The notes beneath the pieces were generated by a model. That model had not been told where the DNA came from. It was given only the letters and a program-made list of their open reading frames with translations, and made no database searches. A stretch of 64,000 nt of DNA from assembly GCA_000091205.1 (NCBI GenBank), contig AP006493.2. One strand, given 5' to 3'. The position numbers and the translations under genes are program-made. The DNA comes from Cyanidioschyzon merolae (lineage: Eukaryota). Below are positions 18,898 through 37,112 of the stretch, in pieces (positions within the stretch are counted from its first letter, which is position 1; each line of letters starts with the position of its first letter).

Positions 18898-18950
18898 TGG
18901 TGAAGTGACTCGTATACAGATCATTACTTCGAATAGCTGGCGCTTCGCTG

Positions 18951-21900
18951 GTGTCGGCCAGAACGAACGCCCGCTTTTCGTCTATGCTGAATGGCTCTGC
19001 TGGGATTTCGTACTCAGGACGACGCAATCTCCGAAGCAATGTTCCCCTCGATGCCGGGCTTCTTCTTCTTCTTCTTGTTCATAAAGTGCCAAACATGGAC
19101 CAAGTCGCGGCTTGTTTCAGAGCAGCATATGCGGATGCGGTTGGGAGCACTCCTTTGCTAGCGTCCGCTGAGGAACGTGCGGTCTTCGTCAAGAACTCGC
19201 TCGAGTTTGCGTTAAAGGTCGAAGCACAGTCCAGAGACGTTACCGCAGCCGGAGCTGAGCAGCAGCGAACCGAGATTGATCGGGCGAGACAGCGACTTTG
19301 GTTCTTCTGTGTGGGTGCTGCTGAGCTCCTGAAGGAACCTGGGGCTCAGTTTCCTTCGCCTTCCTTGGTTACAGCTGCCCAGCAGGCTCTTCGCCAGCGT
19401 CAGCAACATTGGTGCAATCGCCTCGCTGCTGCGAGTCGCTTATCGGCTGATACTACCCTGTCAACTGCTGACGAGGTGGATTCGCTGATAGCCCTAGTCC
19501 GAATAGGGCTGACTGTGCTTGGCCTCTTCGTTTGCCTGAGTATCCTCGGAGAGCGTGAACACTGGCGGGGGCCGTTTCTCTGTGAGCTCTGGCAGCAAGG
19601 CCGTGCCGTCTATGAAGCCTTGGAACGACAAAAGGCCTCGTCTGCAGCTTTGAGAACGACCGCTTCCTTCTTACAGAGCTACTGGTTGGATGCACTCTGC
19701 ACTGCTACCTGGTGGATCGCTGACCTTTCCAATCATGCTGCGGCAACAGCATGGACGCTCGACACATCCCCATCCAGTCTGCTACAAATCAGAGACTCTG
19801 CCTCTGCTCAATGCTCAGTCTGGAATCCTCTTCACTGTAGTTTTACTCAGCCTTGCGCTACTATCCGGGACCAGCACTGGAATTGCAGAGGCTGCAGCGC
19901 CCTGCAAGCCTCATCCTGGACTCCTCATCAATGTACTTTCCTTCTGACTGGACGCTCGTTTCGTGACCAGCATTGGTATCGCTGTAGCACTTGTGCCTTT
20001 CGGGAGGATGAGGGCGTCTGCACGAGCTGTGCACTCATATGCCATGCCGGACACGAGGTTTCGTATGTTCGTTTCAGCGGCTTTTTCTGTGACTGTGGCG
20101 CCAATGCTGCTGCTACGACACCCCGGACAAAGTGTCTCTTATGTACGCTGGTCAGGAGCGAAGAGACATCTTCGACGACGAGCTCTAGCGAAGCCCTGCA
20201 TACATCAACGGAGACGCCCAGAGGTGCTGAACGACGTCCCGCCAAGGCGCCCGAACTCCGTGACGAACACTTGCTGTGGATGAGGCCGCCCTCCGTGAGC
20301 CCGTTGGTGGAGCTCGACTCCACCAAGGCCTGCTTCTACCACGTTTTCATGGAAATTGCCCAGCTTCATGGATCGAGCGACCGCTGCCCTGTCCGCGACG
20401 CTTCGGGTAGCGGAGAAACTGCTCCGGCAGGCGTCCTTCTTGCGAAGGCGATTACAGAACATTTACAATCAACATTCGAGTGGCTTCGCGACAGCGTTTT
20501 GTTTCGTTTTCTACAATCACCGACACCAGGGGAAATACCCCTAGAGACAAATGCTCAGTCGCAGAGCGTTGTGCAAATGCCCGGCACAGAGCAAGCTCCG
20601 CGGAAAGCGTTCCTTCCAGCGCTGCACAGAGCAGCTGCTGCTGGAGATGAGTCGCCCCGCACTGCGACCTGCAACGCTCGAGATGTACGGGAAATTCAAC
20701 AGGACACATGCCAAGTACGCGGAGCCGGCACTTACATTCAGCGAGCGACCTGGAAACCGGAAGCCGTCCAAGTCCTCACGCGTGTGCGCCACGTGGACAC
20801 GAACCAGGGACAGTCGACGCTGGGCATGGGGGTGTTTTGGCAACTGCTTCCCTGCGGAAAGCAGGAGGCCAGGAACCCACGCGAGCTGCATTGGCACCAT
20901 GAGCCGGTACTCGCCTTCGTCGATGGACTCTTTCTCGTGACGTTAGCGGCTTCCGAGCATCACGTTGCATTTCTATCCGATGAAGCGGATATTCGCAGGA
21001 GTTCAGCATCGGTGCCAGTGCACCCGAGTTCGGAACCGCTCGAGAGAGCTCCACTTGCTGGTTGTGCTTGTACAGGCACAGTGAGATCCACTCGTCCAAC
21101 AGCACTGGATGCTCGGCGCTGGATACGACGCCCTCTGGGCTTCTGCGCAGGTGAACTGGGATTTGCACCCAGCTGCCCGCGACGGGGAAGTCTGCAGCGT
21201 CTCCTTGCGCTCAATCGAGAAACGTCAACGCTACGGCTGTACTGCGTTGGCTCGACAGTCGCGGATGTCGATGGGTCTTTGCACGCCCAAAGCTGCGCTA
21301 GCGAGTCACCAAGTCGTCCTGTTGCAGCTGCGGCACATCCGGTGGTGGAACCCGATAAAGTTCGATCGGTGACGCTCCCAACGTCTGGGCAGTCGTTCAC
21401 AGCGTCATGGGGTACCACTGATGCGGCTGCGGCTGGTGATGGAACAACTGTTGTTCATTCTGCGGAAGCGCTTGTTGGTGCATCAGGCTCACGACCTGCT
21501 CCTGCTGGTCCTTCTGCGAACACTGCCACACTTGTGAACGCTGTTGGCGTTTCTGCTGATGCCGTTGTAAGCGACCAGCTAGCCGAGTATCCGTCTAACA
21601 CCCGCAGCAGGATGCAAGCACCAGCGAGACGATCGACGATTCGAGCACATCGGGCTCAACGGGTGCTGCAACGGTGGCGTGAGTATCACCAGGTTCACGC
21701 AAAACGCTGTTTGCGTCTGCTGCTCCGACCAGTGCCTGGCCCAGGAGCAGCGAGTGCGGAGGGCGGTACAGCGTATGGCGCTGCGGAAGTGGCAACTGTA
21801 CCGAAGACCACGCCTGCGACGCTGTCGCTCGAGCAGCCTGAACGCTCGTCCACTGGCACGATGACGTTCGCAGCGCCGGCTGAAGCGTCACAATTCGGTG

Positions 21901-24900
21901 CTCGCCGAGCAACCAGCACAGATACCACATCATCACAGCATCCAGGCAGGTTGTATCTGCTTCTAGAGCGCCAATGCCTCGAAACAGGGGAGCCCATCCA
22001 AGAGGCATCCTGGCTGGATGCCTATGCTATAGACTGGTTGCTTTGTCTGGGACGCTCGCGCTCAAGCCTTGAGGTGCTATCTATCGAGTACGCCTGTTGG
22101 TGTTGGTTCTGCCGATGGATTCGTGAGGCACACGGGGAAGCTGCAGCATCAGCAGCGGATACGACGTCGAGGCCAGCGGGTCCAGACGGCACGGAAACGT
22201 GCCTGACTGTCTCTGAAGCGCCCTCTGGCACCGTGTCCAATGACGAGGAGCCGTTTCTCTGGCTCTCGTTTGCCGATATGGATGAAGCGCTCGCTGCAAG
22301 ACAGCCGTGCACGCTGCGGCCGGCTCCATGTACAGAGGCAGCAGCGGAGAATGCTCGTTTACTTCTAGAACAGACGACAGGTAGTGAATCCCAAATTCTT
22401 CGCTGGTTACCTGACGCTGCACCAGAACATGACCCGTGGCACATGCGGGAGCGGAAACGTTTCCGTCTCATGTTTAGCAACGCACGAGATGGAGTAGCGG
22501 AAGGTTTTGTCGCGAGCAGCGCAACTACAGCTCGGGATATCTGGCACAGTGAGGTCACAGAAGCGACTCTGGCGGGCCCAGTGACTGCCTGGACGTACGG
22601 TCGAGTGTTCTTCGACGCTTCAGACCGGAACCGGTCACCTCCTGGTCGTCTTCTGTTGTTCCTTGTACTATCAAATCAACACCTCGTGGTTTACGAGTAT
22701 GTTGCTGAAGCGCGTGCCGCCTCTTCCGTCGATATTGAGACATCCGGCCTGCGGCAGGTGGCCTCGCTGGAACTCCCGCTGTTCGATACAACACCTTGCA
22801 TGCATACACTGGCAAACGCTCCTGAGGAGAAACCGTCTTCACCGAGCGCAACATCAACATCGACACCAGCACGCGTCTTGGGCCTCTTCTATGAGGCAGC
22901 ACAGCAGGAACTCATGCTCTACTGGTCGAACGGTCACTGGAGTCGATGGAAGCTAACCTGGTGTCGTGAACCTGGTCTCGATGCTGCACCAGAGCCGGAC
23001 ATCGGCTCGCGTTCTATTCGAAATGGGCATCGCTCGCTTTCCAGTGAGCGCCTCCTGCCGTTCATGCCGCAACTCGAACTGACATCTGTGAATTCTGGAT
23101 GCCTTTTCGAGGGAAAGGCGATTGTCGCTGAGCGCGAAGCTCTCGAGGATGTCCAACGAGTTCCCGTCCGATGCCCGCATGGGTGTTGCTGCACCTCGTC
23201 GTCGTGCTCACTGATGCTGTTGCGATCCGCACGAACGCTTTATCTGCTTTGGTGGCAGAGAGAAAAGCGCTGCTGGATGGCGACTCGACAAGGCGCACCA
23301 TATTCGTCTGTGTCGGATGTGCGAGTTCGACAAGCTGGAGCGAACTCAGGCGCGGAAACAGCAGCGCAGAACACCTCCATGGCGACACAAGCAGACTCGC
23401 GAGAACAGCTGGCGATACTCTGCAGTCTCGATGCCGGTACTCAGGATGCTTTGCTACCAGAAAGAGCTCGTCGAATGGATCGACCTATTCCCGAGCGTTG
23501 CAGGCAGCAGCGACTAATCCAGGCTACAGGCTGGGCGCAACTCGAAGCCACAGCGTGCGAATCAGCGTCAGCGTTTCTCATCGATGTGATCATGCTTCTT
23601 GAGGACGGCACCGTTCTGGGTACGCAGACGCGTCTCTCATGCGACGTGCAGATATCCTGGAACGCTCTGGAAGGTTCAGAGCGACCTGATCGGCAGCCTG
23701 TGTCTGCAGTAGATTCTTGGAAGCAACAGAAACATCCAGAGGGCGTCAGGTACTCCTGTTCAGGCGACGTGCGTCTGTCACAGCCTCACGAGCGAGACTT
23801 GAGCACAGCAGCTGCTCGCTTTGCGCATCTGTACTGGAATCATTCGACAGCGGAGGCCGTGTGGCTACCAGCTAGCCCAGAGGACGGCGTTGCTGCTGCT
23901 GACGATGAGGATGAAGCTACACCTCCTGATGTTGCTTCTCTTCCTGAAACTCCTGTTGAAGATCATCGAGGCGTTCGCGGAAATCCTGTTTTGCAAGTGC
24001 GTTACCCGTGGATACACTGTGCGACGAGCGTTGCATATCAGATGACCTGTTCGCGGTCGGTATCGCCATGGCTAGGGCGACCGCAAGGCAACTCGGTGCC
24101 TTCAGCGCTGCTCCTTGCTGATCAGCGGAACAGCAACGGCGGTCTGGTGGGCTTTTTTGAGCTCCTCGACCGGGTACCTTCCGGGATGCTCGCCTGGACC
24201 GGTGATATGTGGCAACTTGGCCTGCGTTCGATGACCGAGACACAGTCATGGTTGGAGCAGTGGCCCAGCGACTCGATGGAGCTGCTCAGCGCACCGATAC
24301 GAGCATTCACGTACCGGTCCTCGGCGGAGCAGAGACCTTTCCGTCGCGAAGATGACGCCCCTGGGACGCGACTCACGGTGCTAGCGTACCGAGTGCACTC
24401 GACGTCCAGCTCTGGTGCGGCTAGGGAGAAGCGCACCGCAGGCCTGCTGCAGATGCCCCAGCGATGTGAGGATACTCCGCTGCCTCTGGCGGCGGATGCG
24501 CTTCTCGGCCAAGAGCAAGGCCAACATCATCAACTGGTGTTTCATGTGTCCAATGTCGGTGATAATGATGCTAGCTGGGCTCTTCTGGGTATACGAATGG
24601 CGTGGTTGCAACCTAACCGTTCCGGTGTGCAGGGTGTTGCGACACCAACGCAGCTGGAGCCGCAGCTGGTCGAGCTCCTCGTCCAGGGCGACCATGAACC
24701 AGCAACCGTTCCAGAGCGGGGAACGTCTGCACCCTGGACTTCGCGCTTGTCACTGGAGTTGCTTCCTGATCCCTGGGTGAATCCGGTGCCTCCTGAGCAG
24801 GGCACTTGGCGCTGGATGGAATACTGCTGGGATGATCCTGTGGTCCTGCGGCGCAATCCCTGCAATCGACAAGTTGTACTGACGATACGGGCACCAGCAA

Positions 24901-27900
24901 TGGACGCTGCAGAGGCGTCCGCTTGGTTGGTGCTCGGCACCATAGAGGTGTACGGAGTGCGACTTTGCGACAGCCGCTGGCCTAACCTGCTGGGCTTCCT
25001 CGAATGGAGGCGAAAACTCCTGAGACAGCTCGATTCCGCTGGGAACACACGGCCTCGTGCGGAAGCTAGGAAGGGAGAGGTTTCCGCGCTCCAGTCGCAG
25101 GCTACGACTAGGCCAGGAACGGCATTGTCGTCAACCTGTCCGCGGTTAGCAGATAAGGATGAAATTGGAAAGGCCTTACACGCTCAGGATAGACTGGCTC
25201 CAGCATTGTCCGTGTCCGGTACTGCTGTATCATCGGGAATACCGGTCGGAAATGCATTGCCAGCAGCAGACGACGGAATAGCCACCACCGTGGAGCAGCG
25301 TTCTGAACGCTCACGAATGGAAATCAACGCTTCTAGCGCAGAGGTGGCATCCTCTTCCGCCGCAGTATCTTCGGGAACGCCTCTACTGCCAGCACAGCAC
25401 ATCGCTTTGTGTGAACGCGATAAGCTTCGCTCAACGGAAGCTGCACATTCGGCAGCAGTCCAAGATATCGCTTCCGCGGATAACATCGAGGACACTGCCG
25501 CTGGACGAATTGTCTGGCGAGCATGCTGGATGCTTGCCGCTATCTTGGCGATCACGGGGGATAATGCGACGACCGGGCTCCAACTAGTCGATGGTTCACT
25601 GCAACATCGCCTGAAGAGCTTTCCTGGTGCTAGCGATGCAGCAGAGGACGCCAACTCGCCACAAATGAAGCATCCAAGCGGCTACCTTGATCGCCACTGG
25701 TTCGGAACGTGGCGTGCGTTATGGAAACTTCTCAGCACTAGGAAGTATTGTTGGCAAAAGCGTCTGATGTTTGCGCAGTCGCTTCAGGAGACTGGCGATG
25801 AACACGCTGCGCTCGAGCAACTCTTGCATGCGGAGACGCATCAAGCCAGACGCTTTCTACGTCTAGATGATACGGAGAACACGCTTCTCCTACAGCAACA
25901 AGCCCGGAAATGCTTCGGCTGCTGGTCAGCGGATCAGGATCAAGTACCAGCAGCTTGGACGAGGGACTTGGTATGCTGGACGGTTGACAGTCTCGACACG
26001 TGCAGCGATCAACACCAGGGACGAGAGGCACTCCTCTGGGCTATCCAGGGACTAGAATGGCTCTACGAAGCGTGCGCTTCATGGACTACCACCACCACCA
26101 CCACCACTGCCACCACCGCAGCACATTCGACAACTCGTTCGGATCAAGGGCATCCTTTATCGATAGATGCGGCCAGCGTCTGCTCTTCACAGGAGACGCT
26201 TGTCTTATCGATAGACTTGGCCCGTGTGTACGCAGAGACTGCGGCAGCTTGGCTGAGCGCCTTTGACACCGAGGGTGCTGGTTCTGCGTCCGCGCCAAAT
26301 GAAGAAGATGAATCATCGCAACGGGATCGACCAACGTTTACAGAACGGAACCTCTGGACAGGTTTCCTCGTGGCGGCGAAACGACTCGGAGACGCCTGGT
26401 GCTCGTCGAGCCGGTGCTGGCAACAGCGTCCAAGTCGGCATGCGAACGAAGGTTCCTCGTCGGAACTCGATTTCTCCGCAGTTTTCTCGTGGTTATTTGA
26501 ACCATTTATTACGGAAGCAGCACCGAATGTGCTTACGAGATTCTTGCAAGTCTGGCTCACGGATGTCGACAAGTTGATCGGCGTCGATGCAACGCATCCT
26601 TCTGCGTTCGACTACTTGGACACTTGGCTTAGGGCCTGCTCTCATCACTGTGCACTGCACTCCTCTGAGCAGACGGAGTGTCGAGCGCGGATGCAAGCGG
26701 CCCCGAGTGCTTTACACGGGCGCTGTGCCCTGCCCTGGCGACGGCTGCCTCCTGAACGGCTACGCCTCATCTTGCGAGCGAGCCTCCTATGTGTCTCTGA
26801 CCAGAATCACTGGTGGTCGTTGTTGCGCCTCATCAACAACGTCGTTACGTCCGCTTCTCACATGGACGAAGCGCTGCGCACTGCCGAGCATTTCGCTGCC
26901 TTACTCAGCGATGAAGAGGCTGTTGTAGAATCGTCGACGCGAGCTATGGATTCCTGGTCGACTTTGGAAGTTTTCTGGATAGTATCAAACACCGTAGCAC
27001 CGCACATGATGGACTCGATGTCATTGTTCGAAACTGCAACTGGACCTGGAGCAACATTCGAGGCACTTGCGGCTGGACGGCAGCGCGAATGTTCACAACG
27101 CCGAGAGACACACCACGATATAGCGCTCTCTGTATGGATCAGGTGTTTTCAACAGCAATGGGTACCTGATCATTGGTCAGACTGTACTGCCTGGTTGCGA
27201 GCGTACTTTTTTCTGGTACTTGCTGCGAGTTGTCTCTGGTTTACGGTTGGTAATGGGAATGATCTTTCTGGTTCGGCTGACGCTACGACGACCTGCATTG
27301 CTGCTGCTGCTGCTGCTGCTGCTACTTCTAGTACTTGCAGTCGTGACACCACTACTGCTCGTATGCGTACTTCTACTGTTGTTGATGATGGTGATGATGA
27401 TGCGACTACCGTATCTCCTGCCTCTACGTTTACTGCTACCGATCCAGCAACGGCTAGAATGAGGCCCTGCGAGGCCGGTGTTGCCTCAGCTTGCAGCCCC
27501 GATAGCCTTGTGGAAGCCAGCAACTCGGGCAATGAGCCGGGCTGGAACGTTGCTGCCACGCGAACGCTCATCGAGTCGGTAGAGTTAGCGCTCTGGGACT
27601 GGTACGGTGCTGGTTTGTGTTTCGGATACCTGGAACAGCCTCCAGCTGCCTTAACAGACCTCGTGGAGGTGCTCATACCCTCGCGAGATGTCGTATCCGC
27701 GGCGTTCCAGCTCGTCGCCGTTCGCCAGACTCTAGCAGCGTTATCCACAGTGGACAATGGAGCATCTGCGCTATGCGACGCCTGCTGCGACCCTGCTGGC
27801 CAAACACAACGAAAAACGTCCACGTACTGGAACCGGTGGCAACGGCAGCAGCGGGTACAACAGGCTGTGCTCTGGATAAGCGCTGTACGGGAACGTGAGT

Positions 27901-30839
27901 TGTGCACGGACCTGGGACTAGCCACGCTTTTACCGACACTAGTCACTGCATTGAAGCACGATGATCGCTATTCAGCGGGTCTTTTGTTGCAATCGCTGCT
28001 CACATTGGGGAGCGAGCTAGCGCACTGGCAACAGATATCGCTTTCCCTGCGTTTGACTTGGGCCTGGCAACTTTTGCGCCTCCTCCTGGTGGAGCCAGAA
28101 CTCCGGCACTGGGCCCAAGACGCTTTGGTGATTGTTCTGGAACGATTGCTGTGCGACTTGATGGATGCTCCAGACCCTGGGGCCTGGGCAGCAACAGGGC
28201 AGCAGTCACCAGCATGCGCTGGTGTATGCGACGCTTCCGAGGCATCGATGTTGCTGGTGCTTTTGCGAAAGTACGTGGCGCTCTATCGACCCCGAGCGCT
28301 CTGCAAAGCGCTACCTACACTCGCAGACTGGGTCACGCTCCTTGCTGCACACTTGCATATCACAGCGGAACTGGTTGGACTCGAACGCTTCCTGATGCAG
28401 GCGACATTCCCGGGGTCCACGACCGCGGTCACTGAACGCAGCTGTGGGCGCGAGGCAGGCGCAACACCATCCAACAACCAGGAGCAAGTCTCTTGGCCGC
28501 TTTCTTGGTTACTGGCATCGCCGGTGTGTGTGGACTGTTTCCACGAGGCGCAAGGTGCGGGCCTGACGCTCCAGGCGGCCGGAGTGCATGGCGCTAGGAG
28601 CAGTGCATCGTTGCAGACTGCACAGCTTAGCGGAAGCACTTGCCTGGGCGGTGCTTCGTCGGCAGCAGCAGTCGCTGGAACGTTCGTCAAGCGCCAACCT
28701 CTATCGACTCTGGCGACTTGCGTACGCTTTGATGACGATCGTATTCAGGCGACATGGACGAGCCCGAAACGACTGCACTGTTTGGGTGTGCGCTTGCGTC
28801 ACACTCGTCGAAGCTTGGCCACGATACTCGGGTTTCGTGTATTGGTGCGCTCTCTAGGTACCGCGCTGGATGCTGCCGAAGTTCCTGGAGCAAGTGCAAC
28901 GCGTGCTCCAGCGAACTGGCGATGCCTCTGTGAACTAGTCTACCGCCAGGATGGGGCGCTGCTTGGTGTGCTCTGCTTTCTGGATGAATGGCCGGAACCG
29001 CTGTTGGGTGCTGATAACGCCCTCGCAACTGGACTTGCACTCGGCTTGACGCGTCAGACTGGCCGTTGTTGTGTACCCGAAACGCAAATTTGTCCGCGAT
29101 GTGCTCGCCTGGTGAGTGAACGGGGCGGCGTCTGTCCAGCTTGTCGAGAGAACGTCTATCAGTGTCGAGCGTGTCGCTTCATTGATTACGGGCGACTTGA
29201 TGCCTTGCTGTGTCGTGAATGTGGCAACTCGCGTCTCATGCGTTGTGATATTCAAGTCGAGACGAGCGACGTTGATCAGGAAGGGACGTTGTTGGAAGCG
29301 CTCATGCATTGGCGCTTCCGGCACACAACCGGTACAAGCAGCAGCAGCATCAGCAACACCGGAAGCGGAGGCGGAACGGAAACTGCACCAGGGGGAAATG
29401 CTAGCGCACCGGCAGTCAGCGCGGAAACGCATGAACCGAAAGCTGCTGCTGCTGCTGCTGCTGCTGCATGGATCGGTGCTCGAGAACGTCGAACAGCGCT
29501 CGTCGCGTGGTGCCTACACGCCCCCACTGAGGCGCTTTTACCGGTTGCGTGTGCGCGATGTGCGCAACGGCGGCTTCCTCGCCTTTGGACGATGTTCGCT
29601 GAAGCAGTTGGGCGTGCTGAATCCGCATCGACTGACCAGTGGAGCCAAGTGTTCGAGCCTCTGCACCGTGCCTTGTTGGTGCTGTTCAGTAGTGGCGGTT
29701 TCATCGATGGCGAGAGAGCAACGCAACAGCTGCCAGTGACGCTGGGCTCATTGCCGCAGCCGGCTCGCGACGCTTGGTTGCGCATCTTGGAGGAGGCACT
29801 CGTCGCTTCCGAATCTGGACCTCGAAATGAGCATGGTGAGGATGCTCGTTCGCGCTGCGAGTTCCAATGTGATCTCGGACAAGCGTATCTGCACCTCCTG
29901 ACGCAGTCGTTTGCATGCTCGGGAGCGTTTGGTGCAGATCGCTTGCTGCAGGGCGCAGAAGCGACCAGCGCTACGACGATGCTGGGCGGCATGCAGCAGC
30001 GTATTGTTATTCCTGCTACGCTGTTCAACAGCACCGCCGACTATCTAGCCGCAGTATATAGCCAAAGGTGGTGTGTACGTCTTTTCCAAAGGCGCTGGTG
30101 TCGGGGCCAAAGTCCGTGGCGGAGGCCCTGTCCCGAGCAATCCTGCAGCGAGGCGTGTATCTGGCGTGCACTTTTTCATCCGTATGCCCCAGGAGTACGC
30201 ACTTGGGCGCTTCGCGTCCTCGCACAGCGACCAGGGTACTGGCGTTGGCTCTTTCACCATAGAATCCTGCTGTTTGGTTGTTGGCAAGCGCTCCGACACG
30301 GTTGTGTTGACATGCTCGACGCGTACTGGGCGCTATGGAGTTGGCTATGGCACCACGAGCGAGCCTGGGTGGACTTTTGGGACTCCACTGGCGGCCTGGA
30401 GTTGCTCTGTACCGTGATTGCTTTCGCAGCTGGCGGTGTACCCTCTGGTGCAGACTCGAAAACGGCCATAGCTTGTGGATGTAGGCGAAACGCTTGGGTT
30501 CCGTCGCTCGCGGAAGCAGTCATTCATGCATGCTTGGAGCGCATCCAGGAGGCTGTGGTGCTGCGAGGGCGTTTACAGTGGACACGAGCTGCACTGGACT
30601 GTTTGCTCTGTGCGTTTGAAGCGCTCTATGTAGTTGCCGACACGAGGATGTCGCTAGCGGCGCAGTTAGCGCTGCTGATACAACGCCAAGCGGAACGGGA
30701 GCCGCTCCTGGCCCATTGGCAAGCTCGGTGGATGACGCAGCGTCTAGAGCGGTTGACAATGTCAGCTGGGACGGTTTCGTGTTTGCATACCGGAGCGACA
30801 GTGCTCGAAAGGAACGAGGGAAATGCTTACGATCGTTGA
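18951..30839 (+). CDS. UBR4: UBR4/BIG (p600/Calossin)-type N-recognin E3 ubiquitin ligase, single 11.9-kb ORF
   Basis: Canonical UBR box at ~19932-20090 (CTFLLTGRSFRDQHWYRCSTCAFREDEGVCTSCALICHAGHEVSYVRFSGFFCDCG). C-terminal cysteine-rich module at ~29091-29250 (CPRCARLVSERGGVCPACRENVYQCRACRFIDYGRLDALLCRECGNSRLMRCD) typical of the UBR4 E3 domain. Protein length is 3,962 aa. An alternative start is Met at 19095. Confidence 0.9.
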   Translation: MSARTNARFSSMLNGSAGISYSGRRNLRSNVPLDAGLLLLLLVHKVPNMDQVAACFRAAYADAVGSTPLLASAEERAVFVKNSLEFALKVEAQSRDVTAAGAEQQRTEIDRARQRLWFFCVGAAELLKEPGAQFPSPSLVTAAQQALRQRQQHWCNRLAAASRLSADTTLSTADEVDSLIALVRIGLTVLGLFVCLSILGEREHWRGPFLCELWQQGRAVYEALERQKASSAALRTTASFLQSYWLDALCTATWWIADLSNHAAATAWTLDTSPSSLLQIRDSASAQCSVWNPLHCSFTQPCATIRDQHWNCRGCSALQASSWTPHQCTFLLTGRSFRDQHWYRCSTCAFREDEGVCTSCALICHAGHEVSYVRFSGFFCDCGANAAATTPRTKCLLCTLVRSEETSSTTSSSEALHTSTETPRGAERRPAKAPELRDEHLLWMRPPSVSPLVELDSTKACFYHVFMEIAQLHGSSDRCPVRDASGSGETAPAGVLLAKAITEHLQSTFEWLRDSVLFRFLQSPTPGEIPLETNAQSQSVVQMPGTEQAPRKAFLPALHRAAAAGDESPRTATCNARDVREIQQDTCQVRGAGTYIQRATWKPEAVQVLTRVRHVDTNQGQSTLGMGVFWQLLPCGKQEARNPRELHWHHEPVLAFVDGLFLVTLAASEHHVAFLSDEADIRRSSASVPVHPSSEPLERAPLAGCACTGTVRSTRPTALDARRWIRRPLGFCAGELGFAPSCPRRGSLQRLLALNRETSTLRLYCVGSTVADVDGSLHAQSCASESPSRPVAAAAHPVVEPDKVRSVTLPTSGQSFTASWGTTDAAAAGDGTTVVHSAEALVGASGSRPAPAGPSANTATLVNAVGVSADAVVSDQLAEYPSNTRSRMQAPARRSTIRAHRAQRVLQRWREYHQVHAKRCLRLLLRPVPGPGAASAEGGTAYGAAEVATVPKTTPATLSLEQPERSSTGTMTFAAPAEASQFGARRATSTDTTSSQHPGRLYLLLERQCLETGEPIQEASWLDAYAIDWLLCLGRSRSSLEVLSIEYACWCWFCRWIREAHGEAAASAADTTSRPAGPDGTETCLTVSEAPSGTVSNDEEPFLWLSFADMDEALAARQPCTLRPAPCTEAAAENARLLLEQTTGSESQILRWLPDAAPEHDPWHMRERKRFRLMFSNARDGVAEGFVASSATTARDIWHSEVTEATLAGPVTAWTYGRVFFDASDRNRSPPGRLLLFLVLSNQHLVVYEYVAEARAASSVDIETSGLRQVASLELPLFDTTPCMHTLANAPEEKPSSPSATSTSTPARVLGLFYEAAQQELMLYWSNGHWSRWKLTWCREPGLDAAPEPDIGSRSIRNGHRSLSSERLLPFMPQLELTSVNSGCLFEGKAIVAEREALEDVQRVPVRCPHGCCCTSSSCSLMLLRSARTLYLLWWQREKRCWMATRQGAPYSSVSDVRVRQAGANSGAETAAQNTSMATQADSREQLAILCSLDAGTQDALLPERARRMDRPIPERCRQQRLIQATGWAQLEATACESASAFLIDVIMLLEDGTVLGTQTRLSCDVQISWNALEGSERPDRQPVSAVDSWKQQKHPEGVRYSCSGDVRLSQPHERDLSTAAARFAHLYWNHSTAEAVWLPASPEDGVAAADDEDEATPPDVASLPETPVEDHRGVRGNPVLQVRYPWIHCATSVAYQMTCSRSVSPWLGRPQGNSVPSALLLADQRNSNGGLVGFFELLDRVPSGMLAWTGDMWQLGLRSMTETQSWLEQWPSDSMELLSAPIRAFTYRSSAEQRPFRREDDAPGTRLTVLAYRVHSTSSSGAAREKRTAGLLQMPQRCEDTPLPLAADALLGQEQGQHHQLVFHVSNVGDNDASWALLGIRMAWLQPNRSGVQGVATPTQLEPQLVELLVQGDHEPATVPERGTSAPWTSRLSLELLPDPWVNPVPPEQGTWRWMEYCWDDPVVLRRNPCNRQVVLTIRAPAMDAAEASAWLVLGTIEVYGVRLCDSRWPNLLGFLEWRRKLLRQLDSAGNTRPRAEARKGEVSALQSQATTRPGTALSSTCPRLADKDEIGKALHAQDRLAPALSVSGTAVSSGIPVGNALPAADDGIATTVEQRSERSRMEINASSAEVASSSAAVSSGTPLLPAQHIALCERDKLRSTEAAHSAAVQDIASADNIEDTAAGRIVWRACWMLAAILAITGDNATTGLQLVDGSLQHRLKSFPGASDAAEDANSPQMKHPSGYLDRHWFGTWRALWKLLSTRKYCWQKRLMFAQSLQETGDEHAALEQLLHAETHQARRFLRLDDTENTLLLQQQARKCFGCWSADQDQVPAAWTRDLVCWTVDSLDTCSDQHQGREALLWAIQGLEWLYEACASWTTTTTTTTATTAAHSTTRSDQGHPLSIDAASVCSSQETLVLSIDLARVYAETAAAWLSAFDTEGAGSASAPNEEDESSQRDRPTFTERNLWTGFLVAAKRLGDAWCSSSRCWQQRPSRHANEGSSSELDFSAVFSWLFEPFITEAAPNVLTRFLQVWLTDVDKLIGVDATHPSAFDYLDTWLRACSHHCALHSSEQTECRARMQAAPSALHGRCALPWRRLPPERLRLILRASLLCVSDQNHWWSLLRLINNVVTSASHMDEALRTAEHFAALLSDEEAVVESSTRAMDSWSTLEVFWIVSNTVAPHMMDSMSLFETATGPGATFEALAAGRQRECSQRRETHHDIALSVWIRCFQQQWVPDHWSDCTAWLRAYFFLVLAASCLWFTVGNGNDLSGSADATTTCIAAAAAAAATSSTCSRDTTTARMRTSTVVDDGDDDATTVSPASTFTATDPATARMRPCEAGVASACSPDSLVEASNSGNEPGWNVAATRTLIESVELALWDWYGAGLCFGYLEQPPAALTDLVEVLIPSRDVVSAAFQLVAVRQTLAALSTVDNGASALCDACCDPAGQTQRKTSTYWNRWQRQQRVQQAVLWISAVRERELCTDLGLATLLPTLVTALKHDDRYSAGLLLQSLLTLGSELAHWQQISLSLRLTWAWQLLRLLLVEPELRHWAQDALVIVLERLLCDLMDAPDPGAWAATGQQSPACAGVCDASEASMLLVLLRKYVALYRPRALCKALPTLADWVTLLAAHLHITAELVGLERFLMQATFPGSTTAVTERSCGREAGATPSNNQEQVSWPLSWLLASPVCVDCFHEAQGAGLTLQAAGVHGARSSASLQTAQLSGSTCLGGASSAAAVAGTFVKRQPLSTLATCVRFDDDRIQATWTSPKRLHCLGVRLRHTRRSLATILGFRVLVRSLGTALDAAEVPGASATRAPANWRCLCELVYRQDGALLGVLCFLDEWPEPLLGADNALATGLALGLTRQTGRCCVPETQICPRCARLVSERGGVCPACRENVYQCRACRFIDYGRLDALLCRECGNSRLMRCDIQVETSDVDQEGTLLEALMHWRFRHTTGTSSSSISNTGSGGGTETAPGGNASAPAVSAETHEPKAAAAAAAAAWIGARERRTALVAWCLHAPTEALLPVACARCAQRRLPRLWTMFAEAVGRAESASTDQWSQVFEPLHRALLVLFSSGGFIDGERATQQLPVTLGSLPQPARDAWLRILEEALVASESGPRNEHGEDARSRCEFQCDLGQAYLHLLTQSFACSGAFGADRLLQGAEATSATTMLGGMQQRIVIPATLFNSTADYLAAVYSQRWCVRLFQRRWCRGQSPWRRPCPEQSCSEACIWRALFHPYAPGVRTWALRVLAQRPGYWRWLFHHRILLFGCWQALRHGCVDMLDAYWALWSWLWHHERAWVDFWDSTGGLELLCTVIAFAAGGVPSGADSKTAIACGCRRNAWVPSLAEAVIHACLERIQEAVVLRGRLQWTRAALDCLLCAFEALYVVADTRMSLAAQLALLIQRQAEREPLLAHWQARWMTQRLERLTMSAGTVSCLHTGATVLERNEGNAYDR

Positions 30840-32329
30840 GGTCGGACGCAATGGACACCTGAGGCTGGATGCATGCGAAGCAGTGGCGCAGACTCCGGAA
30901 ACACGAAATGGAAACGATTTTGGTCGTTGAGGATGGGCACGATCGGATTCCGGTGACTGGAACAGCACACTGCAGACGAGGTTCAGCACGATTCGGAGCG
31001 GAAAGCGACCAAACATGAAATCTCACCTTTCCTGCGATTCATATCGGATGCATTCGTGTGGTGCAATCTTATGAGCGGCTGGTGCGAGCTGCATACCAAG
31101 CGGAATTGGGAGCATTGTTCGTTTACTACCTTTTGTGAACGATGGATGAAACGTTTGTACAGAGGAAATAAAAGTCAATATGTTTATGCACAGAGAGCAT
31201 GTGCTCGTTCTTTGCACAAGTATGGACTTGGCGAGCGGGCATCTCAAGAAATACCGATTCAGCGAATGCATGGATCCAATGCATCTGGACTTGGGGGAAT
31301 GTCGATCATTTCCAGGGTACTCGAATCCATCCGAAAAGATGCCTTTGGATGCAGCGTAGTGCATTCAGAACGACCTGTATCAGCGCGGCGCTCAAGAATT
31401 TTCGTTTGTGTTTTACTCTCGATGGTGATCAACAAAGCGAATGCCTCTTGTCGACTGGCGAACGCTTGCGAAAAAGCCTTGAAGCCGTCATTGCTGGCTT
31501 GTGTAAAAACGGGTTTGCGCGCACGAGTCAGTCATTCTATGGTGAGCAGGTGGCTGAAGAACCCCTCTTGTCGTCGACGTTCTGCATGTTGTGTACCCAA
31601 GACAGAGCTAATCAGACTTGGTCTACGTGGTTATCTGCTCGTCGATTCTTTCGAAGGTATCGATCAAGTGCCACCGAAGACTGCACAGAATACGAGGATT
31701 CCGTCTTGTTGATAAGAACGATGATAGCACGACACTGCTGGACAATGACAAAAACTCAATGATATCTGGAGAGCGTCGTGCTATGCAGAGCTCTCTCTCT
31801 CCATGGAGTAGAGAAACGCGAACGCTTCGTATAATAGATAATAATTTCGCGGCACTCGATGCAACTGTATTCGGAAGAAGTAATAGACCAAAACATGCGT
31901 ACCCAAAGAGTGGACACCGCTGTTCGTAGAAAAGAAACTAGCGGGCATGCTGACAACATCAGCCTCGGCAGCGATGCTGCCATGTGTTCGCCTACGAATC
32001 GTGGTGCAGCCAGGGTCATCCAATACCTGATTCTTCATCGGAGGACATTTCGTGGCGTCCCTAATCCGCATGCCTCTGTCCAAGTCATTGACAAGGTCGT
32101 GCTCCATCACTCCATACGGTGCAGGCATACGCAGCTGCGGTTGGCGGAGTGTTGCTCACAGTGCCTGCTTCAGCGCCCGAATGCACAGAGTTCAATGCGT
32201 CTCCTCTGTGGTAGAACGTCGCTTTTGTTTCGGCTCCGGGATCAGTCGACAAGCCGTTCGCATCCGTGACTCTGTTCTTCGACACGTCATTCTCGGGGTT
32301 CAACATCTTCGTGCTGGTCGATCGCTTCA

Positions 32330-32641
32330 GTGATCAACCGCTGGGGGGAGTGGAAGTACATGCCTCGGTCCGCGCGCCTAGTCGCGACGGAGGTGTCCAA
32401 GACGATTTACCTGGGGAATGTGGTATACATCGATGAAAAAGGCCAGTTTCAGTGCTACGGATCTTTAATTGCGTCTGAATCTCAAGGAAATTGCATAAGG
32501 ATGATAGCGATTCCATCCAGGCAACTGCGTCCAGTAAAGGAGACGGAGAAGAAGAAGCCTGGCTCTGCGAGCAAGTATGATATTTATGAGCAGCTTTACG
32601 AGGAACATCGGAAGTTCCCGTTCAAGTTTTGTTGTTTATAG
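32330..32641 (+). CDS. Hypothetical small protein (103 aa) in AT-richer convergent intergenic region
   Basis: ORF only. The beta-rich N-terminal segment (TIYLGNVVYIDEKGQFQCYGSLIASE) is loosely reminiscent of small Sm/KOW-like folds, but no motif could be confirmed. Confidence 0.15.
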   Translation: MINRWGEWKYMPRSARLVATEVSKTIYLGNVVYIDEKGQFQCYGSLIASESQGNCIRMIAIPSRQLRPVKETEKKKPGSASKYDIYEQLYEEHRKFPFKFCCL

Positions 32642-33869
32642 GGATGATGGAGAACGACGGCATCTATATTTGTACGCACTTTGTGAAAACTAGGCCTGAG
32701 TCAAACACAGGGACTCGCATTTAACCTTTCAAAGCACATGAAAAAGCGAAAGACGCTGCCGTGGGCGTGCATCCCGTGTTGAAAACCGACATCGCCGGTG
32801 CCGTGTCTCAAACTCAGGAGGAGGGAGCCAATGATCCGAATGGAAAGCATTCGAAGCTCGTGAACGTTTCCAAGAATCCATAACATCGAGATGCGGGTAT
32901 CATGCACGGCAGGAGACATGTCAACAAGTCCAGTGAGCGTGTCACGAGGTGTCCTGTGCTCGGAACACCATATCGTGCAGTGCGGAATGCTTTGTGCGGT
33001 TCAGTCAGAGCGCACCTGATCGTCTACGAGGCTTATGCGGATGAACGTTGGCAGTGGTACACGAGATGGTGCTATGGATGTCGAAGGTTTCGGTTATTTG
33101 ATGGCAACGAGCGAGCACTCGCAAAGCTGTTCGACGAGGTGGAAAGCGATACGGCCGATAGTACGCGTCGTATGGTGGTAGTCCGTGGCGCTGGGCGTTT
33201 TCTAGTACGCAACTGCGGCACTCCTGCAACTTCGACGAGTCCGTGCAACGAGTGCAGGAATCGGATCCCTAGAGTGCTTATCGATACGTCCAGAAGGATG
33301 GATATGCACCATGAGCGCGGGTGCACGCTGAAACTGGTAAAGGAGAAGAAGCGTGTGAAACAGAGACCGCCGGATGAGAGGGTGCGCTGTAGCTTGATCG
33401 ACCGTCATTCGAAGAAGCAGCCGACTTTGAGACACTTCCTATGGTGCGATGCTACCGGCGACAATACAAGCAAGCGCTTTCTTCGCCGAATCGTGAGCGC
33501 CTTGATCAGTAGGCGGGACAGCGTTGTGCCTCTGGAGCGTCCACCAAGTTTATGTTTAGCGTGATTTAGAGAGCATTTTTTGGTACTCGGTGTAAGCATT
33601 GTACTGAAGCGCTGAAGACGCACGATGCAACAAAACCAGTGGCCAAGACAGAGAAGATTGCGAACTCGCACGGAGCGAGGCACTGGTGCGGTACGTTTCA
33701 GATGGCCAGCGAGACTAGAACCCAGTATGTGTCCATCGAAAATGATTTTCTCGGGCAGATTTCATCGACGATCATCACGTTCCATGATTCATTCGTACAA
33801 GATATACAAGAGAAACCTATCCGGTATCCGAATCGCCACGGAAGTTCCTCGACGCAAGTGTCCAGCGCT

Positions 33870-36800
33870 TTACAGCGCCAGGTGACCAACACTGTGATCG
33901 AGTGTCGCATGCAGTTGCGCAACTCGTTCCGCAGAGACGTGTTGGCGTAACCACTCCAGAAACACGCCATCATCATGACGCTCTGCTCGCCAGTCATGAA
34001 TCCAGGCGTCTGTTAGCGCCAGAGCAACCGCTAAGCGCGGCTTTTCGCTTGCCCAGTGCTGTGCCGCTGCCTCCACATGCGGCCTGACTTGTTGCCATGA
34101 AGCACGCGTCAAGTAGACGAGGCAACACGCCAAACCAATCCATAGAGGCCAAAGCGGCTTGTTCACTGACTTGTCGTCCGAAAGCGTATGCGTCCAGCCT
34201 GGAGCCGCTAGGGGTGACGGCTCCTCGGGCGTGCACGCCTCGAAGACAGACGCTCTGTCAGGCGGAGCGACGTGTGCCCATGCGGGCGCTAGTCGCTCAC
34301 CGACTCGCAACGAATTCGATTTGGATTCGAACACCAGCTGTCCCAGTTCACAGAAAAACTTCTGCAGTGAAGCAGACCAACTGAATGGCGCGTTGCTCTG
34401 CGGCTCGACCTCGGCACAAAGAAGGTCCGCTTCTAGGAGCTCGATCGCGCTTAGCGTCGTTTCGCCTCGAGCAGCGTTCTGTGCTGCTGCATTGGACGAT
34501 GTCAGCGTACTGGATAACTCCAAAATCGCTGCAACCCAGTGGGGTAAAAGGGAAAGCGCTTTCTCGGCTGGTGGACGCCACCGTTGCTGCCCCTGTGATG
34601 CCGTTTTCGCTGCTGGATGTGGCGCGCTGCCCACAGTACTAGTCGCATCTGCGACTGATTCCGGTCCCATCTGGTAGAGGAACAGTGCTAAACTAGCGAG
34701 CAGCAACGCACGTATTCGCAGCGGGGATCTGAGGACAGCTCCACGCTGAGCATCCGGGTAAAACGGTGCCGTAGGATACATCTTCTCGACGCTGCTTACC
34801 AGATTCTGAAGCATATCTTGCGCGTTGGTACGCTGCCCCTGAACGCAGAGCGGGAACAGAACAATCGTCTTCGCCGTCTTGCTGTCGACTGGGCCGCAAG
34901 CACATGACTGTACCAACGCTAGGTATGCTGCGAGAGCGCGCGCATCGTTTTGCAATGCTCGGCGATGACAGGACTCGTGCGCTACCGACAATCCCGCCGT
35001 GCTCATCGAGAATACCCACAACGGCTCGATGTGCACTGCTGCCTCGACTGCATTAGCGCTCGATATGTGACCATGAACAGCGCTTTGGCGCCGAAGCATC
35101 CTCCAGTTCCGAGAGAGGTCTAGTGCCTGGAGCACCACATAGGCACCAAGCGCGTCAGATGTATCGAGCGTATTCGTTTCTCGACAGAAGACACAGGTTT
35201 CGGCTGCCGCACTGCTTTCGTTGCGACATGCTGCCGCCTCCGGGCGTTGACAGAGTGCATCTATTTGACGCTGTATCGCTTGCGTTGCTCGCTGACGAGC
35301 AAGGAGCGCCGCCTGGCGCCGAGTGCTCTGCAAAAGCGCTGCAGCATCATGAAGGTGCTGTGATCCGGGACCGCCGACCCGGTTGATGGCCTCGATAAGG
35401 TCCTCCGCAGCGTTCCCGATGCTACTTGGCTGTCTAGCAAGCTGGATGAGGCTGCTCGCTACTTGGACAGAGTTCGGGAAATGCCCTAGGCGCTTTTGGA
35501 GCTCAGCTGGTGCACTCGTCACCGCCAGCTGGAGAAAGCGACATAGGTCCTCGATACGAATCTCTGTGCTTCCGGATTGCAGCGCCCTTGTTGCTGTCTG
35601 TGATCCAGTCGGTTGTGTGGACGCTGGTGGCAGCCTCTGATGCGGCACCTGCTCGGTGCCATTTGAGGAGCCGGTCTTCACGTCAGTACGCACGGCTGAC
35701 ATGAGATCCTGCAGGGTCTGTTGGCACCACGCGATAAAGCCGCAAGTATCGAGGGCGTTCCACAGATCGCCACGCGGGAGGAAGCTCAGCATGATGCCGC
35801 ATTGTCGTACGGCCGTCTTCGGCCAGTGCTCGGATGCTATTGATACAGCCGACGTAAGTGGAAGACGCAATGCGGTAAGCACCGTCGGGACGTCCCCGAA
35901 ACGCGCCAGCAAACGAAGCCACAGGCGTTCTTTCTCGGCAGTGGGGGCGTCCTGCGCACCCGAAAACGCCCCAGTTAATCCCGTGCAGCTGCGATGATCT
36001 CGCGCGGGCGGTTGCTTCTGTTGCTGTTGCTGTTGCCGAGGCGTCGAGCGTCGCAACCACAGACTCGCCTGTTCACATATCGCGGACGCACAGGGCGAGC
36101 AGCTGGTGTCCTGCTGTCGTGCCTCCAACGGTGTCAGCTGTTTCGCCAGCAGGTCCAGCAATTGGTTGGCTATTGCGGCAAGTTCCGGGGAGCCTCGTGC
36201 CGCTAGCTGCGCAGCAGCGAGGAACGCCTCGTTTGTAAGACGCTGCCGTCGGGCCGTATCTAGACATGCCGACCAACATCTTGCCAGCTCCGACTCCTTG
36301 ACCGATACCTGATGTGTGCTGCTGCGATGGCTATCATCCGACGCTTCCATATCAAAAAGGGCTACCAGCTGGTGAATAGCCGCAGACGGTGCGAGCGGTA
36401 TGAGTCGCACGACGTGTTCCAGCCCACCGCCCCGAACAAAGCTTTTGAAAAGGAGCCGTCGGACCACGCGGGATGGATTTGATCTTGCTGCCGTGCCAGA
36501 AGCGTCTTCGGCCGGTGGCTTTGCAGTTTCGACCGTAAAGTGCGGCTCAGTTGCCTCGCCATCAAGACCTGCCAACCGATAAATGACCACGATAGTGCTG
36601 GTGGCGGCTTCTATAGAGCGAATAACTGCAAGTAAGGGCAAGGAAAGCGGAACCAAACGCCCACCGATCAAAAGCTCAAGCGCAAAGTCGTCCGAAAGCA
36701 AGGATTTGAGGTCTAGCTGCAAGCAAATGAAATCCTTGAGCACTCGCATGGTCCAGGCATGAGGTTCCTTCAAGGAAAGACTGAGCCCAGCTCTTTGACA

Positions 36801-37112
36801 CGTTTCAACAATACGAGTCAAGCGGAACCGCTGCCCATAGAGCGAGCCTCGTATAAAGTCCTCTTGTGAGGGCGCCTTTTGAAACTCGAAGACCACGCTG
36901 TCGGTCTGGTGCTCGTTTGTCTGCGCTGGAGCCGCGCCCCGCCCTGGTGACGACACGTGCAGCTGACTTCGCTCCTGGTGTCGTTCTTGCTGCTCACGAA
37001 CCGCATAGAGGAACGGATACGGCGTCGCCGCTTCGGATACCTGCAGGTCAAAGAGCGCAAAGAGCGCCTCCGCAGACGCTGCACACGTTCTCGCAGACTC
37101 GGGCGCACTCAT
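33870..37112 (-). CDS. Large hypothetical protein (1,080 aa), convergent with the UBR4-like gene; contains a possible degenerate UBR1-type RING-like segment
   Basis: Long uninterrupted ORF with protein-like composition and a poly-Q run (QQQQQKQ). The segment 'CVFCRETNTLDTSDALGAYVVLQALDLS … SVAHESCH … IVLFPLCVQ' resembles the UBR1/2 atypical RING region (CILCQEEQEV…AMVLSACVQKS … SCGHVMH … YLCPLCK). No UBR box is present. Confidence 0.6.
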   Translation of the reverse strand: MSAPESARTCAASAEALFALFDLQVSEAATPYPFLYAVREQQERHQERSQLHVSSPGRGAAPAQTNEHQTDSVVFEFQKAPSQEDFIRGSLYGQRFRLTRIVETCQRAGLSLSLKEPHAWTMRVLKDFICLQLDLKSLLSDDFALELLIGGRLVPLSLPLLAVIRSIEAATSTIVVIYRLAGLDGEATEPHFTVETAKPPAEDASGTAARSNPSRVVRRLLFKSFVRGGGLEHVVRLIPLAPSAAIHQLVALFDMEASDDSHRSSTHQVSVKESELARCWSACLDTARRQRLTNEAFLAAAQLAARGSPELAAIANQLLDLLAKQLTPLEARQQDTSCSPCASAICEQASLWLRRSTPRQQQQQQKQPPARDHRSCTGLTGAFSGAQDAPTAEKERLWLRLLARFGDVPTVLTALRLPLTSAVSIASEHWPKTAVRQCGIMLSFLPRGDLWNALDTCGFIAWCQQTLQDLMSAVRTDVKTGSSNGTEQVPHQRLPPASTQPTGSQTATRALQSGSTEIRIEDLCRFLQLAVTSAPAELQKRLGHFPNSVQVASSLIQLARQPSSIGNAAEDLIEAINRVGGPGSQHLHDAAALLQSTRRQAALLARQRATQAIQRQIDALCQRPEAAACRNESSAAAETCVFCRETNTLDTSDALGAYVVLQALDLSRNWRMLRRQSAVHGHISSANAVEAAVHIEPLWVFSMSTAGLSVAHESCHRRALQNDARALAAYLALVQSCACGPVDSKTAKTIVLFPLCVQGQRTNAQDMLQNLVSSVEKMYPTAPFYPDAQRGAVLRSPLRIRALLLASLALFLYQMGPESVADATSTVGSAPHPAAKTASQGQQRWRPPAEKALSLLPHWVAAILELSSTLTSSNAAAQNAARGETTLSAIELLEADLLCAEVEPQSNAPFSWSASLQKFFCELGQLVFESKSNSLRVGERLAPAWAHVAPPDRASVFEACTPEEPSPLAAPGWTHTLSDDKSVNKPLWPLWIGLACCLVYLTRASWQQVRPHVEAAAQHWASEKPRLAVALALTDAWIHDWRAERHDDGVFLEWLRQHVSAERVAQLHATLDHSVGHLAL

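Follow-up and report, generated by a model that had tools for sequence, protein, structure and literature searches.

We analyzed a 64,000-nucleotide stretch of the Cyanidioschyzon merolae genome (the window) and found that CMK161C, a protein encoded on its minus strand, is very likely the C-terminal catalytic module of the E3/E4 ligase UBR4 (BIG in plants), which became a gene of its own after a fission. The ORF listing gave an uninterrupted ATG-to-stop frame of 1,080 aa at 33870-37112, exactly as reported in the first-pass annotation, and its product was 100% identical to C. merolae 10D CMK161C (BAM80533.1 / M1VHU0). CMK161C and its orthologues are named 'hypothetical protein' in the source genomes, a record that can now be corrected to UBR4 module. 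The family and its chemistry are already known and do not represent a new kind of system; the automatic UniProt label of M1VHU0, 'E3 ubiquitin ligase UBR4 C-terminal domain-containing protein', also points to UBR4. In the literature searched, CMK161C was not mentioned in any paper, and UBR4 was never named alongside Cyanidioschyzon; the top-ranked papers of a broader search on red algae and gene fission did not mention UBR4 either. The features discussed below are as follows.

33870..37112, minus strand: CMK161C, 1,080 aa plus stop; very likely the detached UBL-armadillo-hemiRING-UZI module of UBR4
36906..37112, minus strand: N-terminal helices, residues 1-69 (predicted helices 4-28 and 31-47)
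36537..36905, minus strand: UBL domain, residues 70-192, with the YRLAGLDGEATE motif (phmmer, profile, pLDDT ~90; translation checked)
35208..36536, minus strand: helical/armadillo region, residues 193-635 (secondary structure, Foldseek)
34914..35207, minus strand: hemiRING zinc finger, residues 636-733 (alignments to human UBR4 and BIG; translation checked)
35193-35195, 35184-35186, 34977-34979 and 34968-34970, minus strand: codons of the putative zinc ligands C640, C643, H712 and C715, respectively (translation checked)
33873..34913, minus strand: UZI-like helical bundle, residues 734-1080, opening with a conserved LFPL strand (P754)
18951..30839, plus strand: UBR4 N-part, a 3,962-aa ORF tail-to-tail with CMK161C (Pfam zf-UBR)
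19965-20135, plus strand: UBR box of the N-part, aa 339-395 (Pfam zf-UBR)
29079-29273, plus strand: UBR4/BIG zinc finger of the N-part, aa 3377-3441 (matches BIG 3441-3495 and human UBR4 3655-3714)
30840..33869, no strand: spacer between the stop codons, 3,030 bp, read as an inversion junction
38388-39059, minus strand: synteny anchor DER1, an ORF upstream of CMK161C on the same strand
39421-40719, minus strand: synteny anchor mitochondrial carrier, an ORF upstream of CMK161C on the same strand

CMK161C matched the Pfam family PF13764 (E3_UbLigase_R4) with E = 1.1e-20 and a whole-protein score of 73.9 bits, above the gathering cut-off of 23 bits, which was also passed by the relatives P0002, P0003 and P0004. 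Its sequence matches in the PDB were limited to human UBR4 and Arabidopsis BIG, and a Foldseek search with the full-length model returned human UBR4 complexes as the top five PDB matches (E ~2e-9). The UBL domain aligned to residues 4357-4456 of human UBR4 by phmmer and to residues 4169-4265 of BIG by profile (PDB 9QT9), the latter being the best PDB profile match to CMK161C (E = 1e-15). The protein had been described as an orphan that matched nothing recognizable outside a RING-like segment, a description that these matches overturn. Identity among relatives was 62-64% in the UBL versus 34-36% protein-wide; the YRLxGLDGEATE motif was present, and R179, G182, G185, T188 and E189 were invariant in 38 sequences.

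Downstream of the UBL, the helical region recovered UBR4 chains first in Foldseek and then importin-alpha-type ARM repeats. Residues 555-635, with a conserved IGNAAEDLIEAI motif, were HMM-aligned to the pre-hemiRING region of UBR4 and corresponded to the human 4730-4832 region, which raises UBE2A affinity (PMC10873205). For the hemiRING itself, single-sequence phmmer of residues 600-780 against the PDB gave nothing significant, neither UBR4 nor UBR1, so the kinship is visible only by profiles and structure. A profile built from the three closest relatives aligned the hemiRING correctly to that of BIG (aCMVCREGY...IIHFQCH), but the score alone was not significant; an HMM of 42 non-cyanidialean UBR4 sequences matched residues 555-725 with E = 1.3e-6 (Z set to 1e6). 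The predicted structure was closest to human UBR4, with a fold match to its E3 module (PDB 8BTL, with UBE2A; Barnsby-Greer et al. 2024, PMC10873205) over 272 residues; in the CMK161C model, the hemiRING, predicted with moderate confidence (pLDDT 50-92), was packed on an all-helical UZI bundle. Compared to this human module, CMK161C showed 12-15% identity and contained a helical insert of ~30 residues between two hemiRING strands; it is also a separate 1,080-aa protein, whereas the human equivalent comprises residues ~4280-5183 of one chain.

The remainder of UBR4 was found in the neighboring gene. The convergence of CMK161C with a UBR4-like gene, noted in the first-pass annotation, was confirmed and proved meaningful: the 3,962-aa partner bears the UBR box that CMK161C, as had also been stated, lacks according to Pfam. 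Pfam detected only zf-UBR in this N-part and neither PF13764 nor any C-terminal E3 module. Since the neighbor lacks PF13764, CMK161C is its missing C-terminal part and not, as had been proposed, a decayed copy of an N-recognin. Thus, in C. merolae the UBR box and the ligase module lie on separate ORFs instead of one giant polypeptide, unlike BIG, a single 5,141-residue chain whose residues 3441-3495 are matched by the zinc finger of the partner. HMM mapping of the N-part and CMK161C onto UBR4 was collinear, and the distance from zinc finger to UBL summed over both ORFs (582 + 177 = 759 aa) falls inside the range of 730-1,119 aa observed in 19 intact UBR4s. Between the zinc finger and the C-terminus of the N-part, ~525 residues could not be aligned to intact UBR4s by HMM mapping, and the human-numbered cut point (~4280) is therefore extrapolated from the UBL alignment. 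The cut point appears common to relatives, since the N-part C-terminus aligned to near the end of the L002 homologue.

The split was not limited to C. merolae. The order mitochondrial carrier, DER1 and E3_UbLigase_R4 was also present at the loci L001, L002, L003 and L004, and orthologous convergent pairs in the same synteny were detected in Cyanidium caldarium, Cyanidiococcus and a metagenome relative. The two stop codons were separated by 79 bp in Cyanidium caldarium, where the partner ORF also carries zf-UBR, and by 174 bp in the metagenome relative; compared to this range of 79-174 bp, the spacer of C. merolae is much longer (3,030 bp). In this spacer, there was no Pfam match above threshold, tRNA, Rfam family or similarity to the loci of relatives; short two-copy repeats without evident meaning were the only elements observed. 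A scan for the locus in metagenomes yielded nothing beyond the same species, and word-index homologue searches gave only 2-4 proteins, with no wider red-algal sampling. A second UBR4 paralogue was rejected, as no other module-bearing C. merolae protein appeared in homologue searches. In the florideophyte red alga Gracilariopsis chorda, UBR4 is an intact single gene product of 5,110 aa (PXF48696.1), unlike that of C. merolae, with zinc finger (3358), UBL (4468) and hemiRING (4892-4987) in the same order, which indicates that the cyanidialean split is derived. Together, the gene arrangements point to an old fission of UBR4 in Cyanidiales, which may serve as a shared derived character for the group. 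In an ancestor of Cyanidiales, the 3′ part of the gene would have been severed immediately before the UBL and its orientation reversed; a single inversion is the simplest route and would yield two convergent genes, one for the UBR box, scaffold and zinc finger and the other, CMK161C, for the catalytic part.

How the two products work together can be proposed by homology. An E2 of the RAD6/UBE2A type would bind to the hemiRING and the preceding region, with the C2HC zinc site and Glu645 as contacts, the UBL would hold the acceptor ubiquitin for chain extension, and we infer that access to substrates would be gained by non-covalent binding of CMK161C to the N-part chain. This contact would probably be made by the N-terminal helices of CMK161C, a candidate docking element that could complete the broken helical repeat. 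Within these helices, residues 12-32 were 57-67% identical to relatives, compared to 34-36% overall. We give about an even chance to a stronger proposal, that cyanidialean UBR4 is an obligate two-subunit enzyme consisting of a ~4,000-aa receptor/scaffold and a ~1,000-aa catalytic chain rejoined via the severed armadillo repeat, and that its genes are kept tail-to-tail, in some lineages with stop codons as close as 79-174 bp, for coupled expression. The main competing explanation, possible but clearly less probable, is that CMK161C works on its own as a UBL-hemiRING E3/E4, unattached to the N-part, which would then be a non-catalytic scaffold or the partner of another ligase. Human UBR4 fragments 4730-5183 do autoubiquitinate alone with UBE2A (PMC10873205), and the human hemiRING is attached flexibly and is unresolved in cryo-EM maps. 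However, in none of the cyanidialean lineages examined have the two genes moved apart or been broken, even though protein identity has fallen to ~38%. Conservation also rises above background in the N-terminal helices of the C-part and over the ~90 C-terminal residues of its partner, as would be expected for a retained interface, and the human UBL is located within the C-terminal armadillo extension of the scaffold. If the two-subunit proposal is true, it would make cyanidialean UBR4 the first giant E3/E4 ligase that is naturally 'split', and one from a thermophile.

The sequence strings quoted earlier were located at residues 640-667 (CVFCRETNTLDTSDALGAYVVLQALDLS), 709-716 (SVAHESCH) and 750-758 (IVLFPLCVQ). 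The hemiRING keeps all four putative zinc ligands: C640, C643, H712 and C715 match C4838, C4841, H4887 and C4890, the zinc ligands of human UBR4 (PMC10873205), in a single C2HC site. A canonical RING was considered and rejected. The replaced ligands that had been reported belong to a second zinc site, which is absent in all UBR4s; the human protein is catalytically active with a hydrogen-bond network instead (PMC10873205). In alignments of 36-38 UBR4-family sequences, C640, C643, Y658, H712, C715, H716 and P754 were invariant or nearly so. The conserved Y658 corresponds to human Y4856, which belongs with N4884 and N4911 to the hydrogen-bond network, and C643-R644-E645 aligns to human C4841-R-E4843, whose glutamate is an acidic E2-contact residue that kills activity when mutated.

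The earlier claim that catalytic residues were lost is thus not supported, although the diglycine element and part of the hydrogen-bond network have changed. The EWEGAALRN / AALQN motif (EWESAALQN in human UBR4), which holds human Asn4911, was changed and not alignable in the C. merolae clade, and human Asn4884 is replaced by Ser709 in CMK161C and by His in relatives. The diglycine element of the UZI (non-RING element, NRE), G4979/G4980 in human UBR4, is required for full activity (PMC10873205); it was replaced in CMK161C (RPPAEKALSLLP), and C. merolae, like the relatives closest to it, has RPPAE instead. In the alignment, the GGGG-x-E/Q-SN column block corresponded to RWRPPAEKAL in CMK161C and MPSE / LPGE in P0002 / P0003. 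These changes are a real decay of some catalytic accessories, so that reduced or altered activity is possible.

A catalytically dead module, retained solely to bind ubiquitin or to play a structural part, would be close in spirit to the first-pass interpretation, and we consider it unlikely. The loss of the diglycine and EWEGAALRN / Asn4911 motifs and the Asn4884 replacement would fit such a protein, as would the UZI being its least conserved part (19-34% identity among relatives). Comparison with a 99%-identical strain gave 8.5 non-synonymous and 3.5 synonymous differences, a dN/dS of ~0.8 that is indistinguishable from neutrality but badly underpowered, with only 12 differences. On the other hand, there is no variation in any of the four zinc ligands, Glu645, Y658 or the LFPL strand, relatives share 47-48% identity in the pre-hemiRING E2-affinity region, and the predicted fold matches 8BTL over 272 residues. 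In addition, human Asn4913, the linchpin-equivalent residue, is dispensable, which implies that UBR4 tolerates weak activation.

The segment had originally been interpreted as a degenerate UBR1-type RING. The RING-related zinc finger and the UBR-family (N-recognin) affiliation stood, with key residues conserved across the UBR4-family alignments and the RING-like pattern thereby shown not to be a chance match, but the UBR1 type did not: an atypical RING of the UBR1/2/3 type with lost zinc ligands is very improbable. The yeast Ubr1 RING with its helical cap (PDB 7MEY) is a two-zinc RING, unlike the one-zinc hemiRING of CMK161C; no sequence similarity to it was detected, and UBR4 matched far better in structure. 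Still less probable, and rejected here, is an artefact in which a continuous UBR4 gene was assembled with a false inversion or wrongly annotated; ORFs are indeed fragmented in the Cyanidiococcus draft, but five independent assemblies or contigs, which represent at least four lineages, share this arrangement, the N-part stop codon and C-part ATG lie at equivalent positions in relatives, and the ORF listing shows an in-frame stop upstream of the CMK161C ATG.

UBR4, a ligase of ~570 kDa, is difficult both to produce and to study in parts; the definition of its catalytic module dates only from 2024 and that of its architecture from 2024-25. That the two halves have persisted while their sequences diverged deeply (~38% protein identity) shows that the catalytic module can stand apart from the rest of the enzyme as a unit, and the cyanidialean fission marks a tolerated cut site just before the UBL. 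C. merolae, which is thermophilic and genetically tractable, thus offers a compact 1,080-aa UBR4 module for biochemistry and structure work. Cyanidium caldarium CDCA04G1246 (KAK4535221.1, 923 aa) shares split, synteny and orientation with C. merolae, including a partner with UBR box, and is much more canonical than CMK161C (PF13764, E = 7e-49), with both EWEGAALRN and the GGGG diglycine block kept; its partner is shorter, a 2,593-aa ORF versus 3,962 aa.

We identified a conserved natural fission of UBR4, the giant E3/E4 ubiquitin ligase called BIG in plants, in which the catalytic module is parted from the scaffold/receptor portion. The two parts are encoded by convergent ORFs:

18951-30839 (+): N-part ORF, 3,962 codons
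30840-33869: spacer between the convergent stop codons, 3,030 bp
33870-37112 (-): CMK161C (C-part) ORF, 1,080 codons, uninterrupted, ATG start

Cyanidioschyzon merolae is a thermoacidophilic red alga nearly without introns. The product of the minus-strand ORF was 100% identical to CMK161C of strain 10D (BAM80533.1, UniProt M1VHU0). The first-pass annotation had described an orphan protein with a degenerate UBR1-type RING-like segment, no UBR box and a UBR4-like gene in convergent orientation. The orientation was confirmed by the ORF coordinates, and the quoted strings were found at residues 640-667, 709-716 and 750-758. However, CMK161C is not an orphan: it matched PF13764 (E3_UbLigase_R4, the UBR4 C-terminal region) in Pfam (E = 1.1e-20, 73.9 bits; cut-off, 23 bits), and PDB sequence searches returned UBR4 and BIG chains only. 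Neither a RING nor a UBR-box family was matched in Pfam, in agreement with the absence of a UBR box noted earlier. The region matched in the PDB searches is a ubiquitin-like (UBL) domain, residues 81-192 aligning with human UBR4 4357-4456, and a profile of the three closest CMK161C relatives matched Arabidopsis BIG at E = 1e-15. The UBR4 domain was already known, being flagged by UniProt's automatic name. A literature search returned no paper on CMK161C or on UBR4 together with Cyanidioschyzon, and the best-ranked results of a broader search included none on UBR4 in red algae.

An AlphaFold2 model of full-length CMK161C (mean pLDDT 66.8; UBL about 90) gave human UBR4 complexes as its best five PDB matches (E about 2e-9), followed by generic armadillo proteins only. 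For a separate model of residues 600-1080 (pTM 0.73), the sole significant Foldseek match was 8btl_A, the human UBR4 hemiRING-UZI module in complex with UBE2A (E = 1.1e-4, target TM 0.57; runner-up, E = 3.2). These matches are specific to UBR4, so the comparison with UBR1 reflects a distant relationship at most. Rather than an unrelated fold and no UBR-family profile match, we found 8btl_A and PF13764; the proposed UBR-family affiliation stood, with UBR4 in place of UBR1. Sequence, motif and fold tests all place CMK161C in the UBR4 C-terminal family, and a UBR1/2/3-type RING identity was rejected.

What resembled a RING is in fact the hemiRING of UBR4. In the human protein, this is a one-zinc C2HC finger (ligands C4838, C4841, H4887 and C4890) whose second zinc is replaced by a hydrogen-bond network (Barnsby-Greer et al., PMC10873205). 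TC(640)VFC(643)RE of CMK161C aligned to human TC(4838)CIC(4841)RE, and H(712)ESC(715)H to human H(4887)YDC(4890)H and BIG HFQCH. Counterparts of all four ligands are therefore present, contrary to the suggestion that several had been replaced. In alignments of 36-38 family members across eukaryotes, C640, C643, Y658 (human Y4856), H712, C715, H716 and P754 were invariant or nearly so. Glu645 aligned with human Glu4843, an essential residue for activity that touches Arg7 and Arg11 of UBE2A. An independent HMM, built from 42 UBR4 sequences, all non-cyanidialean, matched residues 555-725 (E = 1.3e-6, database size set to one million). A group of UBR4s including those of Gracilariopsis and Gracilaria (P0009, P0033, P0041, P0047, P0057, P0090 and P0097) reads CVVCGDGF where most hemiRINGs have CxxCREGY, such that the E2-contacting Glu is Asp and the preceding Arg is Gly. 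Cyanidium likewise has CVVCGDGH; the CRE of C. merolae was either reverted or retained.

The N-part carries a UBR box (aa 339-395) and lacks PF13764 in Pfam searches; it also has the zinc finger that spans residues 3655-3714 of human UBR4 and 3441-3495 of BIG. This finger lies 730-1,119 residues from the UBL motif in 19 intact UBR4 proteins. Across the two ORFs the distance is 759 residues (582 to the N-part end and 177 from the CMK161C start), and HMM mapping of both onto UBR4 was collinear, indicating that together they sum to one UBR4. The predicted cut lies about 70-80 residues ahead of the UBL. Unlike UBR4 and BIG, CMK161C is not on one giant chain and so is not a whole UBR4 protein.

The gene order Mito_carr, DER1, E3_UbLigase_R4 and convergent zf-UBR gene recurred in three other lineages when orthologs were sought in related genomes: Cyanidiococcus yangmingshanensis, a metagenomic relative (174 bp between stop codons) and Cyanidium caldarium (79 bp), compared with 3,030 bp in C. 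merolae. In Cyanidium, a UBR box was identified in the 2,593-aa partner ORF. N-part proteins of C. merolae and the metagenomic relative align up to about 25-40 residues from their ends, and C-part proteins have a conserved start region in common, implying a shared cut point. Word-index homologue searches and a metagenome scan yielded next to no further homologues. In the florideophyte Gracilariopsis chorda, zinc finger, UBL and hemiRING all occur in a single 5,110-aa protein, so the split is derived within red algae; the fission offers a synapomorphy of Cyanidiales. Inverting the 3' portion of the UBR4 gene once would yield exactly the tail-to-tail layout, and we infer this origin; alternatively, duplication may have been followed by complementary loss. 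Since independent assemblies show the arrangement, it is very unlikely to be an artefact of assembly.

Both halves are fragmented in Cyanidiococcus (VWRR01000010.1, 10001-22754): the C-part stops prematurely after 917 aa, whilst five or more called genes or ORFs make up the N-part, which could reflect draft-assembly frameshifts or genuine decay in this lineage. In Cyanidium (JANCYW010000004.1, 12851-20632), the partner gene is annotated as 2,020 aa without a Pfam match; its reading frame reaches 2,593 aa and then takes in the UBR box at aa 288-334, so the deposited model is probably truncated 5'.

By homology with human UBR4, whose UBL holds the acceptor ubiquitin while K48 chains are extended (bioRxiv 10.1101/2024.12.18.629163), the CMK161C UBL would position acceptor ubiquitin, the hemiRING and pre-hemiRING region would dock a RAD6/UBE2A-type E2, and the UZI bundle would support the finger. 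Among relatives of only about 35% overall identity, conservation clusters in the UBL (62-64%), the pre-hemiRING region (47-48%) and a short N-terminal helix (residues 12-32; 57-67%). The helix has no obvious partner within the molecule, and the C-terminus of the N-part is conserved; the two are a candidate surface through which the chains may rejoin. Action of the module independently of the N-part appears unlikely. A catalytically dead module is slightly less probable again, with several caveats in its favor: the UZI diglycine element (mutated in human UBR4 as G4979 and G4980 to assay its role in activity) aligns to RPPAE, Cyanidium having GGGG; the EWEGAALRN motif (site of human Asn4911) is not recognisable in the alignment; and Ser709 occupies the position of human Asn4884. 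Set against a strain 99% identical, dN/dS was about 0.8, an uninformative estimate from just 12 substitutions. The split reveals no new chemistry; for UBR4 biochemistry, it provides a tolerated cut site and, in CMK161C, a compact module from a thermophile.

The spacer is specific to C. merolae, lacks similarity to the relatives' loci and has no recognisable feature: GC is lower (about 52%), and neither a Pfam match above threshold, a tRNA nor an Rfam family was found, the one weak ZnF_RZ-type match (E = 0.004) being under the cut-off. Directly upstream of the N-part ORF start, a 100-bp unit is repeated 2.2 times (18682-18898, 98% identity). A 451-aa ORF (42758-44113, -) between the mitochondrial-carrier gene and a GFAT-like gene (45335-47770) has no counterpart among called genes of the three syntenic loci. 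Two adjoining coding tandem arrays at 51989-53593, one with 5.6 copies of a 213-bp unit (95% identity) and the other with 19 copies of a 21-bp unit, sit within overlapping long ORFs (51946-54382), coincide with extreme skews (AT, -0.38; GC, +0.12), and probably encode a repeat-rich protein. An 81-bp unit (4.3 copies, 27-aa repeats) occurs at 56652-57000 within ORF 56625-57701 (-).
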